Origin: a virus
Reading direction: 5' to 3' (one strand)
DNA: 18,255 nucleotides
UHGV virus genome: UHGV-0073224
The notes below the pieces were generated by a model, which was not told the origin of the DNA, did no database searches, and was given only the letters and a program-made list of their open reading frames with translations. Shown piece by piece: positions 3,725 through 7,463 of this stretch; position 1 is the stretch's first letter; every line of letters starts with the position of its first letter. Made by a program: the position numbers and the translations under genes.

Positions 3725-4693
3725 TTAGTAGGTTATTTTTGTTGCGAATACTTCGCCTTTTACGATGGCTGTTATGATATTTTTAGCAACATCTTCTGAT
3801 GCACCAACCTTGATAAGGTCAGCAAGTATTTTGTTATTTACTTCTTTCCGGTGAGCTTTATCCTTTGCTCTACGCTCTTCTTCGTCCTTGATTCTTTTTT
3901 CTTCTGCTATTCTGGCTTGCTCTTTTGCTTCAGCCTCGCGCCGGATTCGTTCAGCCTCCTCCTGTGCTTTTCGGCGTTCTGCTTCAATTGCCGCCTGCTT
4001 TTCTCTTTCAGCTCGTTCTGCTGCCTCTTTTGCTTCGCGCTGTGCTCGTTGCTCGGCTTCAATGCGTTCACGCTCTGCACGTTCCGCTGCGGCCTTAGCT
4101 TCTGCTTCTCGCCTTGCTGCTGCTTCAATTTCGGCTTTTGCCTTTGCTTCGGCTTCTGCTCTGGCTTTCTCTTCAGCTTCTCTTTTTAAGCGTTCTTCAT
4201 GCTCTCGCTTTTCCTGCTCCGCTTTGAGTCTTGCCTCTTCTCTTTGGCGGTCAAATTCGCGATCCATCAAAATAGCTATTTCATGGTCAGACTCAATTTG
4301 CTTTGCGAGAGCTTCAGCTGCTGCCTTAGCTTCTTCTTCGGCTTTAATCCGCGCCTGTTCTTCCTCATAATCAGTAAGAGGCTGGCGCGCCTTGGCTTTC
4401 AGCTCATCAAGGCGATCACGCACTGTCTTGCGGTTGGCATCAATTAGCTTTGGAATTTCCTTCAGTTCAGCAACAAGGTCTTTGCCAAGACCATCGAGAT
4501 ATGTTTTCGTCTGCGCAACTTTATACGCCAGAGAAGCGATCTCCTTTCTGCCCTTTGCCGTTGTGATATCAGGCACAAAGGACATAACTTCACGTTCAAC
4601 CTTTTGAAGGATTTCTTCAATCTGGTCGGCAGACTGAAATACAGTCATTGCATTTGCTTTTTCAATAACAACTAAATCTGTTACTTCACTCAT
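3725..4693 (-). CDS. coiled-coil protein with long Glu/Ala/Lys/Arg-rich low-complexity central region
   Basis: Track ORF 3725..4747 begins at a TTG; ATG (MSEVTDLVV) at 4693 has a GGAGGATAT RBS. Central section is EAEAKAKAEIEAAARREAEAKAAAERAERE...; globular N- and C-terminal ends. Confidence 0.6.
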   Translation of the reverse strand: MSEVTDLVVIEKANAMTVFQSADQIEEILQKVEREVMSFVPDITTAKGRKEIASLAYKVAQTKTYLDGLGKDLVAELKEIPKLIDANRKTVRDRLDELKAKARQPLTDYEEEQARIKAEEEAKAAAEALAKQIESDHEIAILMDREFDRQREEARLKAEQEKREHEERLKREAEEKARAEAEAKAKAEIEAAARREAEAKAAAERAERERIEAEQRAQREAKEAAERAEREKQAAIEAERRKAQEEAERIRREAEAKEQARIAEEKRIKDEEERRAKDKAHRKEVNNKILADLIKVGASEDVAKNIITAIVKGEVFATKITY

Positions 4694-4705
4694 ATATCCT
4701 CCGTC

Positions 4706-4734
4706 AAAAAAATTGCCCTCACACTGGAGGGCAA
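4706..4734 (-). terminator. intrinsic terminator-like hairpin (minus strand) just upstream of the coiled-coil gene
   Basis: Plus-strand TTGCCCTC-ACACTG-GAGGGCAA gives an 8-bp stem; on the minus strand it is followed by a 7-T run. Confidence 0.5.
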
Positions 4735-4825
4735 AGAAGATTTCCAATAATCAGAACAAGTCGGCTCCTGTTTAGTTACGAGCGACATTGCTCACATAGC
4801 AGACTCGCAAATCTGCTATAGGTGC

Positions 4826-4987
4826 TTATTCGCATCGCATGACAACATCAAATTTTTCGAGATTACTTTGTCGCAACAATCCCTCTTCTACGCGGTCAGC
4901 TTTTCTATAATTATCAAATTCGAAATGTTTAATTACTTCTTTCGTTTCTCGCTCTATAACTTCAACAATGTATTTCTTATTCATCAT
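4826..4987 (-). CDS. small hypothetical protein (53 aa)
   Basis: Track ORF 4826..5050; internal start MMNKKYIVEV... at 4987 overlaps the stop of the upstream paralog gene (ATGA). Confidence 0.4.
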   Translation of the reverse strand: MMNKKYIVEVIERETKEVIKHFEFDNYRKADRVEEGLLRQSNLEKFDVVMRCE

Positions 4988-5262
4988 TCTTCCCCCAGGG
5001 CCTTGCTGATGGCTGCCTTGGCTCGTTTGTATTCGGTTAACTCTCTGCACCCTTCGTCATGCTCGTAAAGGAAGACAAGCTCTTGCAGTGCTTCAAGCAA
5101 ATCAGGAGCTGCTGCTATCAGTAGCGCATCCTCCCTTTCATTTCTTGTTGCTGCTTCAATGTATGTGTCACCAATCGTCACACCATGGAACGTAGTCATC
5201 ATCTCGTTGACGTTTCTAACCGTGTACTTCCATTTACCAGGCGTACCCTTAAACTCTTTCAT
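4984..5262 (-). CDS. small protein, paralog A of a duplicated family (conserved AAPDLLEALQ...ISKALGEE C-terminus)
   Basis: Track ORF 4984..5268 begins at a GTG; ATG (MKEFKGTPGKW) at 5262 has a GAGGTGG RBS. C-terminal half is shared with ORF 5783..6034. Confidence 0.55.
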   Translation of the reverse strand: MKEFKGTPGKWKYTVRNVNEMMTTFHGVTIGDTYIEAATRNEREDALLIAAAPDLLEALQELVFLYEHDEGCRELTEYKRAKAAISKALGEE

Positions 5263-5280
5263 ATCCACCTCTGTTGTTTA

Positions 5281-5310
5281 TGCCAAAAATAAAGGCCGAC
5301 TATGCGGCCT
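5281..5310 (-). terminator. intrinsic terminator (minus strand), copy 1 of a duplicated element
   Basis: Stem AGGCCG/CGGCCT with 6-nt loop (5293..5310), followed on the minus strand by TTTATTTTTGG; directly after the stop of ORF 5309..5779. The 32-bp block 5279..5310 is identical to 6053..6084. Confidence 0.55.
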
Positions 5311-5782: not shown

Positions 5783-6034
5783 TTACTCATCTCCAAGGGC
5801 TTTGCTGATTGCTGACTGTGCTTTCGATACTTCATCAGGATAATGGTCATTCCAGTTTTGCTTGTATGCCTTGTTTAGCATCGCTTGCAGGGCTTCGAGC
5901 AAATCAGGAGCTGCCTCCATCAATCTCACATCACCTCGATGGATGGTTGTATCGTCAAACGTGAAATAAACCCCATCATCGTTAAATCCAGCGCCAACAA
6001 CATTCCATGGCCTTTTCATTCTTCCTACTGTCAT
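5783..6034 (-). CDS. small protein, paralog B of the duplicated family
   Basis: Track ORF 83 aa (MTVGRMKRPWNVV...); GAGGTG RBS; shares EAAPDLLEALQ and ISKALGDE with paralog A. Confidence 0.55.
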   Translation of the reverse strand: MTVGRMKRPWNVVGAGFNDDGVYFTFDDTTIHRGDVRLMEAAPDLLEALQAMLNKAYKQNWNDHYPDEVSKAQSAISKALGDE

Positions 6035-6054
6035 TATTCACCTCTGTGTATTTA

Positions 6055-6084
6055 TGCCAAAAATAAAGGCCGACTATGCGGCCT
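6055..6084 (-). terminator. intrinsic terminator (minus strand), copy 2 of the duplicated element
   Basis: Same hairpin and T-run as 5281..5310; sits just after the stop of the membrane-protein gene. Confidence 0.55.
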
Positions 6085-6088
6085 GAAA

Positions 6089-6538
6089 TTACTTAACCAA
6101 TGATGCTGCATATTCGATAAGGTAAAGCTTTGGGGCCAGCCAAATTTTTAACCAAGTCATATTGGTTACTACACCAATAATAAAAATCCCCCACAGAGTC
6201 AAAACTACAACCAATGGCATGATAAGAAGATTAATATCACCTTTGCTATCCCAAACCATTGTCGGCCTGTATTTGGGATTTCCTTTCTCCCATGAATATC
6301 CTTCATCACCGATTTTACCTGTCTCAACTCTTTGGCACTGCTTCTTCATAAACCAGAAAACCAGTGGGATTGTTAAAATGGCCATTAATGTTTTAATCAG
6401 ACTGTCAACCATATTCCATAGCAGCAACTGATGAACAACATCAGGAATCTGTGCCTGGCTGAATGAAACAGCCGCGTCTATTCCATTACTGGCTTTTTGC
6501 AGTAGTTCTACGAGAATCTTGTTTGCTTGTTCTTCCAT
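6089..6538 (-). CDS. two-TM inner-membrane protein, possibly superinfection exclusion (SieB-like by position)
   Basis: Track ORF 6089..6589 begins at a TTG; ATG (MEEQANKIL) at 6538 has a GAGGTTAGAT RBS. Hydrophobic segments LIKTLMAILTIPLVFWF and INLLIMPLVVVLTLWGIFIIGVV. Position matches lambda sieB; no sequence confirmation. Confidence 0.5.
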   Translation of the reverse strand: MEEQANKILVELLQKASNGIDAAVSFSQAQIPDVVHQLLLWNMVDSLIKTLMAILTIPLVFWFMKKQCQRVETGKIGDEGYSWEKGNPKYRPTMVWDSKGDINLLIMPLVVVLTLWGIFIIGVVTNMTWLKIWLAPKLYLIEYAASLVK

Positions 6539-6546
6539 ATCTAACC

Positions 6547-6711
6547 TCAAATAAGTGGTTTGCTGCGAAAATAAATACGTTCCCACCAAGTTCCGTATCT
6601 ATCTATCCAGTTACACCAATCATCGACATTCCATTTTGTTGTGTCGCATTTTGGCAACTGGCATGAATATCCACCTTCTTTGTAAAGTCGGCGTTTGACT
6701 TTCTTGAGCAT
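6547..6711 (-). CDS. small Cys/Trp-rich protein immediately downstream of N
   Basis: Not on track (54 aa: MLKKVKRRLYKEGGYSCQLPKCDTTKWNVDDWCNWIDRYGTWWERIYFRSKPLI). GAGGTGAGCC RBS overlaps the N stop; its stop lies 8 nt before the membrane-protein ATG. Confidence 0.4.
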   Translation of the reverse strand: MLKKVKRRLYKEGGYSCQLPKCDTTKWNVDDWCNWIDRYGTWWERIYFRSKPLI

Positions 6712-6719
6712 GGCTCACC

Positions 6720-7052
6720 TCAATCGTAATAAGCTGGAATTGATTTTCCGCGTTGCTTCTGGCGGCCTGAGCAAGTCACACCCATTTCACTGCGTGGCTT
6801 GCTGTACCATGTGCGCTGATTCTTGCGCTCAATACGTTGCAGGTTGCTTTCAATCTGTTCGTGGTATTCAGCTAGCACCGTAAGGTCTATAGGATTCAGT
6901 GCGCTTTCTACTCGTGATTTCGGTTTGCGATTCAGCGAGAGAATAGGGCGGTTAACTGGTTTTGCGCTTACCCCAACCAACAGGGGATTTGCTGCTTTCC
7001 ATTGAGCCTGTTTCTCTGCGCGACGTTCGCGGCGGCGTGTTTGTGCATCCAT
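6720..7052 (-). CDS. N: N transcription antiterminator (lambda type)
   Basis: Track ORF 110 aa beginning MDAQTRRRERRAEKQAQWKAANPLLVGVSAKPVNRPILSL..., matching recalled lambda N including the Arg-rich boxB-binding motif. Confidence 0.92.
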   Translation of the reverse strand: MDAQTRRRERRAEKQAQWKAANPLLVGVSAKPVNRPILSLNRKPKSRVESALNPIDLTVLAEYHEQIESNLQRIERKNQRTWYSKPRSEMGVTCSGRQKQRGKSIPAYYD

Positions 7053-7320: not shown

Positions 7321-7351
7321 GCCCTTCTTCAGGGCTTAATTTTTAAGAGCA
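7321..7351 (-). promoter_or_regulatory. nutL: nutL site (boxB hairpin plus boxA-like element)
   Basis: Minus-strand GCCCTGAAGAAGGGC at 7321..7335 (lambda nutL boxB) with ...GCTCTTAAAAATTAA upstream at about 7343..7351. Confidence 0.75.
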
Positions 7352-7390: not shown

Positions 7391-7463
7391 AAATTACAAG
7401 AAAGATTGTATACTGTAAACAAGAAATATTGTAAAAAGAGGCGTGAAAAACAAACTCCGTTGT
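7391..7463 (-). promoter_or_regulatory. pL promoter region with three 434-type operators (OL)
   Basis: Three 14-bp ACAA-N6-TTGT sites: ACAAGAAAGATTGT (7396..7409), ACAAGAAATATTGT (7419..7432), ACAAACTCCGTTGT (7450..7463). Minus-strand -35-like TTTACA (7414..7419) and -10-like TAATTT (7391..7396). Confidence 0.6.

Follow-up and report, generated by a model that had tools for sequence, protein, structure and literature searches.

Accessory genes between N and a terminator in a lambdoid phage: a DUF5484 protein and a membrane protein of the phrog_3054 family

The interval of the early-left operon between N (24 in P22) and cIII is the location of ral and sieB in phages lambda and P22, as borne out by the records of both phages. 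SieB (PF14163) is a small protein (162-192 amino acids, aa) with hydrophobic N-proximal segments. Its gene, a dispensable accessory, is prophage-expressed and in lambda, P22 and Rac is encoded on the strand opposite to the early-left promoter pL; in the P22 record, an own promoter is annotated for it. Here, an 18,255-nucleotide (nt) DNA stretch, UHGV virus genome UHGV-0073224 (referred to at its full length as the window), was analyzed for the two genes that follow N on the minus strand at positions 6711 to 6089, a 54-aa open reading frame (ORF) and a gene for a 149-aa membrane protein. An earlier note on the window had located both in the ral/sieB position and proposed that they may form a different exclusion or abortive-infection pair. 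The membrane gene resembles sieB in its interval, in the small size and hydrophobic segments of its product and in being a dispensable accessory gene. In contrast to sieB, it is co-directional with N and appears coupled to the preceding gene.

Other described systems were compared as follows. With T4 Imm and P22 SieA, the likeness is one of mechanism only, all being small inner-membrane proteins. SieA differs in being prophage-expressed and in carrying three transmembrane (TM) segments and an FxRYPxEAxxFNK motif, both absent from the window protein. Lambdoid morons (promoter-gene-terminator) share with the membrane gene a variable presence at hot-spots after N and after Rz, a terminator directly downstream and flanking boundary sequences, whereas no own promoter was detected for the membrane gene in the four contexts scanned. 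Public phage records already list both genes, as encoding hypothetical proteins (36 and 34 of Shigella phage Sf6, gp37 of phage HF4s and Bas106_0043 of phage Bas106). HF4s gp37, a 'TM helix-containing protein' of phrog_3054, is 96.6% identical to the window membrane protein. As described below, the two genes are best read as independent, horizontally mobile accessory genes and not as a matched pair.

Co-occurrence and relatives of the 54-aa and 149-aa genes

The N antiterminator gene (110 aa; 6720-7052; Pfam N36, E = 1.6e-26; phrog_271), the 54-aa ORF (6547-6711), the 149-aa ORF (6089-6538) and an intrinsic terminator follow one another in this order, all on the minus strand, and their coordinates were confirmed. 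Genes upstream of the membrane gene were recorded in 76 viral contigs, representing close relatives (at least 76% identity) with enough upstream sequence. N alone was found in 34 contigs, N followed by Ral in 21, SieB on the opposite strand in 10, the 54-aa ORF in 7 and late-operon genes in 3. Of 22 loci taken from various bacterial species, only one contained the small ORF, at a non-adjacent position. Phage HF4s carries the membrane gene directly after N. Phage Bas106 carries the small ORF followed by a 156-aa gene, 100% identical to positions 5779-5309 of the window, and has no membrane gene; compared with Bas106, the window contains an inserted block consisting of the membrane gene, the terminator and an 83-aa gene. 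Because the genes co-occur in so few contigs (7/76) and loci (1/22) and each is found without the other, they are best regarded as independent accessory genes, and the matched pair suggested earlier was not upheld. Clustering of the neighbors at 32 diverse family loci yielded no recurrent partner, the largest cluster having six members. A conserved small upstream partner in distant phages was considered as well and rejected, the upstream ORFs of phages phi92 and FSL SP-076 being without a DUF5484 match.

The same counts argue against a prophage-expressed exclusion or abortive-infection pair that replaces ral and sieB, for instance as sensor plus effector or toxin plus regulator, which is considered improbable even though the slot is that of ral and sieB. 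Lysogenic-conversion morons typically consist of a gene for a small membrane protein with a terminator behind it, and the neighbors of relatives include gp17 and SieB, both exclusion-related. The membrane gene nevertheless coexists with genuine SieB. Being co-directional with pL, and with the stretch from N to its start free of promoter-like sites, it should not be expressed under repression. No PADLOC model matched, and family members also occur in phage groups that presumably do not form lysogens.

The 54-aa ORF encodes a small, Trp-rich protein with three Cys and five Trp residues, a basic N-terminus and no hydrophobic segment. As noticed earlier, its ribosome-binding site overlaps the N stop: the Shine-Dalgarno sequence GAGGTGA contains the N stop codon (GAT TGA GGTGAGCC ATG) and the start lies 8 nt past this stop. 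The protein matched PF17583 (DUF5484) with 41.5 bits, compared with a gathering cut-off of 27, and residues 5-42 aligned to model positions 3-41 of 43, which makes it a member of this family. A match to phrog_1871 was also obtained (E = 4e-21). Identity to T4 gp55.4 was ~50% over 39-41 residues, and alignment of the 54-aa ORF, T4 gp55.4 and Sf6 gp36 revealed a common core, K-R-x-L-x-K-x-G-x-Y ... PKxDTTKWxVxDW. Using tblastn, homologues were retrieved from 1,029 phage records, 1,019 of which were below 60% identity and which belonged mainly to Escherichia and Klebsiella phages; among the matches listed, all those of about 165-177 kb looked T4-like, and T4 itself was present. Since the DUF5484 score exceeds the cut-off and homologues occur in 1,029 phage records, the ORF is a real gene and not a chance ORF. 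It had been described as unlisted, which is true of E. coli BEN2908, where PGAP leaves it out, and not of Sf6 and Bas106, where it is annotated as gene 36 and Bas106_0043, respectively.

T4 gp55.4 differs from the window copy in two respects: none of the three Cys residues is conserved in it, and the C-terminal tail of the window copy, which is read from a linker (see below), is an addition. Cys not being conserved, a zinc-binding reading is unwarranted and the zinc-finger interpretation was dropped; the richness in Cys and Trp would be largely incidental. Rac ydaF and ydaG were also dropped as homologues of the small ORF, ydaF being annotated as DUF1391 and ydaG being unlike the ORF by eye. 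A literature search on DUF5484 found no functional work, T4 gp55.4 being named once, in a transcript list without function. The 54-aa protein is thus described here by family membership only and appears to be an unrelated neighbor of the membrane gene.

Neither ORF is homologous to Ral or SieB, in agreement with the impression given in the earlier note. In Pfam (E ≤ 1), the 54-aa ORF matched DUF5484 and nothing else, Ral included, and the 149-aa protein had no match in Pfam (E ≤ 1), NCBIfam or PADLOC. Comparison by hhalign of a 150-sequence profile of the membrane family with a SieB alignment (Rac, lambda, P22 and five others) gave a probability of 0.4% over 8 columns. Beyond phrog_3054, no Pfam, annotated PHROG or PADLOC match to known exclusion proteins (T4 Imm, P22 SieA) was obtained, HK97 gp15 not having been compared directly. 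Ral and SieB are found next to the membrane gene as separate entities. Ral queries matched other ORFs in 25 of the 76 viral contigs, and the order in Sf6 is N, gene 36 (the small ORF), ral (gene 35), gene 34 (the membrane protein) and tL2A. Genuine PF14163 SieB adjoins the 149-aa homologue in 10 of the 76 contigs, in phage vB_SosS_Oslo and in widespread Salmonella P22-like prophages, which carry c2, 24, sieB (opposite strand), the 149-aa gene, variable genes, gp17, cIII and kil. Because it co-occurs with genuine SieB, the membrane gene is not a positional substitute for sieB.

Architecture and cassette exchange in the membrane protein family

The 149-aa ORF starts with ATG at 6538, 8 nt past the stop of the 54-aa ORF, which is overlapped by its Shine-Dalgarno sequence GAGGT. 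A longer, TTG-started reading of 166 aa was dropped, as nearly all of 516 close homologues, found in Enterobacteriaceae, are exactly 149 aa long, which fixes the start at 6538. The two strongly hydrophobic segments reported earlier were recovered at residues ~43-64 and 103-125, with Kyte-Doolittle 19-mer maxima of 1.87 and 2.69, and the intrinsic terminator was found behind the gene. A profile search against 1.84 billion cluster representatives, clustered at 50% identity, retrieved 2,597 relatives at E ≤ 1e-3, of which 1,189 at E ≤ 1e-10. The protein matched phrog_3054 over its entire length (E = 1.1e-64; residues 1-149 on model positions 1-137 of 137), and all of 50 diverse relatives fell in this family, which is annotated as 'unknown function'. 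Both motifs, FSQAQIPDV..QLLxW and WLKIWxAPKLYLIEYAASLxK, and both TM segments were present in the window protein, confirming membership. The 516 close homologues, the 2,597 clusters and the purifying selection on the ends of the gene (see below) indicate a real gene rather than a chance ORF. The product is a helical-hairpin membrane protein of the very large phage family phrog_3054.

The family architecture was read from alignments of 24, 50 and 150 members. In the window protein it comprises a conserved N-terminal segment (1-42), TM1, a class-specific loop (65-102), TM2 and a conserved C-terminal segment (126-149, WLKIWLAPKLYLIEYAASLVK). Across the family, the N-terminal segment is about 45 residues long and net acidic (MNEQANKxLxxLLxKAxxGxDAAVxFSQAQIPDVIxQLLxW), the loop measures 10 to 74 residues and is wholly different between classes, and the C-terminal segment of ~24 residues is rich in Trp and Tyr (WLKIWxAPKLYLIEYAASLxK). 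Searching the 50 diverse relatives against Pfam, NCBIfam and PADLOC produced nothing consistent, with single chance matches to hydrophobic families, and a PDB sequence search with two family profiles gave chance TM matches only (E ≥ 0.12). An AlphaFold2 model built on the 150-sequence alignment reached a mean predicted local distance difference test (pLDDT) score of 77, an earlier model on 24 sequences being poor (pLDDT 65). The better model shows one long helix spanning residues 2-68, then a short beta-like loop and two further helices (106-125 and 128-148); with this model, Foldseek found no PDB match and, in BFVD, family members only. Mean Lys plus Arg content was 4.26 in the loop flanks versus 2.01 in the terminal flanks, the loop being richer in 91 of 101 members. 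By the positive-inside rule, which is the sole basis for the topology, we infer that both conserved termini are periplasmic and the variable loop is cytoplasmic. No functional work on phrog_3054 or Sf6 gp34 was found in the literature.

Selection within the 149-aa class was estimated by the method of Nei and Gojobori as the ratio of nonsynonymous to synonymous substitution rates (dN/dS). Values of 0.03-0.27 were obtained for the conserved ends and of about 0.2 for the loop. For TM2 (codons 103-125; 6164-6232), five recent pairwise comparisons gave ~1.0-1.4, a weak estimate as only 23 codons are involved; this could reflect relaxed constraint or diversifying selection. Alignment with Sf6 gene 34 (2539-2961 of the compared Sf6 stretch) showed 118 of the first 120 nt and 28 of the last 30 nt to be identical, whereas the central 270-300 nt are unrelated, with identity at chance level. 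At the protein level, the first ~39 and last ~20 residues of Sf6 gp34 are the same as in the window, as is the terminator behind the gene; the differences are the unrelated central TM-loop-TM cassette and the position, gene 36 and ral lying between gene 34 and N in Sf6. The TM-loop-TM cassette has thus been exchanged between alleles within the gene. With identical ends around a replaced middle, the conserved ends would therefore also serve as recombination handles for cassette swapping.

Junctions, genomic contexts and transcription

A junction of ~40 nt (about 6539-6580, minus strand) precedes the membrane gene and carries its Shine-Dalgarno sequence. Junctions of the window, HF4s, BEN2908, Oslo, a Salmonella prophage, Sf6 and Bas106 were aligned. 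The linker, CGTATTTAYTWYCGCAGCAAACMACTTATTTGAGGTGA, aligns with the 3′ end of HF4s-type N (…CCGTATTTACTACCGCAAGCCAC…CTTATTACGATTGAGGTGAGAT) with an internal deletion. The same N-relic precedes the membrane gene in BEN2908, Oslo and Salmonella prophages, and the 156-aa gene in Bas106. The alignments indicate that the linker derives from the 3′ end of an N gene, of which it is a relic, and that it is reused at several module junctions. The overlap of Shine-Dalgarno sequence and stop codon is alike at both junctions because the linker derives from the N 3′ end. In Sf6 and BEN2908, the small protein ends with WWDK followed by the stop codon; in the window and Bas106, this stop is lost and the ORF runs into the relic, so that the last ~10 residues of the 54-aa ORF, RIYFRSKPLI, come from the linker (cf. 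RIYYRKP in N).

On the other side of the membrane gene, the terminator (6084-6067, followed by a T-run) begins four bases past the 149-aa stop, with a stem AGGCCG/CGGCCT and a minimum free energy of −10.1 kcal/mol. It lies within a 34-nt boundary sequence (6051-6084, minus strand), which is repeated exactly and in direct orientation at 5277-5310 on the same strand. In the Sf6 record, the equivalent terminator is annotated as tL2A and overlaps boundary sequence bsq4. Of 80 related loci, 77 have a terminator-like hairpin within 80 nt behind the membrane gene, and a terminator was likewise seen in the Oslo and Pantoea contexts: the membrane gene and the terminator move together. It is likely that the shared junctions are substrates for the module shuffling seen across contigs.

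Each 34-nt repeat is followed by a paralogous ORF of phrog_1273, of 83 aa (5783-6034) and 94 aa (4984-5268), respectively, both with the motif AAPDLLEALQ. The repeat brackets a cassette of the 83-aa and 156-aa genes, which looks like a boundary-sequence-mediated insertion or duplication. Farther downstream, a 340-aa ORF (3725-4747, minus strand) has a long, highly charged central region rich in Glu, Ala, Lys and Arg. Its HF4s counterpart, HF4s_0036, is annotated as 'antitoxin / similar to phi80 Agt', and homologues of Sf6 gp33, found downstream of the membrane gene in some relatives, are one comparison candidate for it.

The membrane gene is in the early-left operon in 73 of the 76 close relatives. 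E. coli lambda-like prophages and PhiR46_1 carry relatives of 70-76% identity in their late operons, between the lysis cassette and Nu1. In Pantoea (P. stewartii) prophages, a relative of 62% identity overlaps the end of the o-spanin gene, starting 4 nt inside its stop, and has a strong terminator behind it; of 32 diverse representatives, four have a gene for Rz or a DUF2514 i-spanin immediately upstream. These late positions would suit a lysis-associated membrane factor, acting in holin or spanin timing or in envelope integrity before lysis, of which the pL copy would be a displaced instance. This explanation is doubtful in view of the predominance of early-left locations among close relatives, and the listed neighbors in phi92 and FSL SP-076 include no annotated lysis gene. 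Moreover, the interval between Rz and cos is a classic insertion site for unrelated genes, such as lambda bor, and the protein resembles no holin or antiholin family of Pfam.

More distant members were found in phi92-like myoviruses (phi92 gp220), in Schitoviridae infecting Salmonella (FSL SP-076), in many Vibrio phages, in Pseudomonas phages and in the 344-kb Ralstonia phage RsoM2USA. The phi92 and FSL SP-076 genes are surrounded by genes for RNA polymerase, dUTPase, ATPase and endonuclease. We take the phi92-like, Schitoviridae, Vibrio and RsoM2USA groups to be virulent and these regions to be early, neither being stated in the records. At one diverse family locus, an Acb2/Tad1-hairpin protein (anti-defense by its Pfam name) is the immediate downstream neighbor.

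The window derives from a lambdoid phage or prophage, the immunity region of which is essentially that of Sf6, with 434-type operators. A 434-type repressor is encoded at 8547-7915 (minus strand). The oL/pL region (7395-7463, minus strand) contains three 434-type operators, ACAAGAAAGATTGT, ACAAGAAATATTGT and ACAAACTCCGTTGT, overlapping the early-left promoter; in a motif search they were exact matches to ACAA-N6-TTGT at 7396-7409, 7419-7432 and 7450-7463. The nutL site (7321-7350, minus strand) was read from the sequence, with the boxB hairpin GCCCTGAAGAAGGGC at 7335-7321, which we take to be identical to the boxB of lambda nutL; a hairpin scan detected it on the opposite strand as well. In the Sf6 record, the OL/PL equivalent is annotated and a putative nutL is found at the same relative place.

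On the minus strand, no terminator-like site was found from pL (about 7440) to 6084, and a crude consensus scan detected no promoter-like site from 7052 to 6538, so that the internal promoter envisaged in the earlier note was not recovered between N and the membrane gene. The same type of scan found no promoter able to serve the membrane gene in the PhiR46_1, Oslo and Pantoea contexts. A promoter-like site at 6060-6033 was taken as a chance occurrence, its −10 hexamer overlapping the ATG of the next ORF. From the overlap of its ribosome-binding site with the preceding stop, the membrane gene appears to be translationally coupled to the gene before it.

Both accessory genes would thus be carried together with N on the immediate-early pL transcript of an Sf6/434-type lambdoid phage. 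The first, N-independent transcript would comprise N and the 54-aa and 149-aa ORFs and end at 6067, and the three proteins would be co-produced right after infection or induction, before N-dependent antitermination. N-modified polymerase would later pass the terminator. Under repression, the genes would be silent. Because no own promoter was found and the family apparently occurs in virulent phages, the membrane protein probably exerts its role after infection or induction, and not while the lysogen is quiescent.

A gene for a 134-aa protein (7918-7514, minus strand) with a signal-peptide-like N-terminus, 99% identical to Sf6 gp38, directly follows the 434-type repressor gene and precedes oL/pL, where lambda carries rexAB. 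It had no Pfam or PADLOC match and belongs to phrog_2651, of unknown function. For a prophage-expressed function, it is a better candidate than the N-proximal genes.

Possible roles of the membrane protein

The membrane protein would be active at the inner membrane, with two constrained terminal segments on one face, probably periplasmic, and an exchangeable hairpin and loop. In the preferred reading, to which a probability of roughly 40% is assigned, it would be an envelope-conditioning protein of the lytic program; in its most concrete form, it would block secondary infection early, in the manner of T4 Imm. Several points weigh against this. No paper on DUF5484 or phrog_3054 was found that assigns a function, and Pfam, NCBIfam and PADLOC offer no model for the membrane family, nor does the PDB contain a structural neighbor. 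To our knowledge, characterized exclusion proteins are narrow and fast-evolving, and termini conserved from Vibrio to Ralstonia phages fit better with binding of a conserved host component or with self-assembly. Immediate-early and late operons both carry the gene; a timing this variable would be unexpected for an early block of injection. A consensus promoter scan, furthermore, cannot exclude a weak or non-sigma-70 promoter active in the lysogen, and the periplasmic location of the termini derives from charge distribution only.

The breadth of terminal conservation, across phages of Enterobacteria, Vibrio, Pseudomonas, Ralstonia and Achromobacter, favors a host-takeover or anti-defense effector over a narrow exclusion specificity. 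The conserved ends of such an effector would bind and alter a component of the host envelope, possibly a membrane protease, the insertase or translocon, Tol-Pal, parts of the divisome or a membrane-bound defense effector, and the cassette would tune stability or host specificity. This possibility is tentative and almost as likely as envelope conditioning. The surroundings are those of accessory genes (cIII, kil and gp17 in the pL operon, and the one Acb2/Tad1 neighbor), and with no conserved phage partner at the 32 diverse loci, any partner would be a host factor. No result points to a host target, however, and no similarity to known anti-defense or takeover proteins was found in the Pfam and Foldseek searches. 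In addition, with TM2 near-neutral and the loop swapped between classes, ~65 residues are left for a conserved interface.

A broader form of the envelope-conditioning reading is more speculative still. Here, phrog_3054 would be a pan-proteobacterial class of inner-membrane proteins for modular exclusion or envelope conditioning, used by temperate and virulent phages alike, in which the periplasmic ends provide a common mechanism and the swappable cassette sets specificity. Recombination inside the conserved ends would reassort the alleles.

Taken as they stand, the genes after N are ordinary mosaic accessory genes of an N-proximal hot-spot, carried also by Sf6, HF4s and many prophages, and not a new two-gene defense system. 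The curated libraries searched do not record the size of the membrane protein family, its layout of constant ends and interchangeable middle, its occurrence in early as well as late operons or its having no Pfam model. The junctions offer a concrete example of N 3′-end relics and terminator-bearing boundary sequences as recombination handles of the pL region. With 2,597 clusters at 50% identity, the family is among the larger phage families without a Pfam model or known function, and a function established for the E. coli or Sf6 allele could be transferred to thousands of genes in phages.

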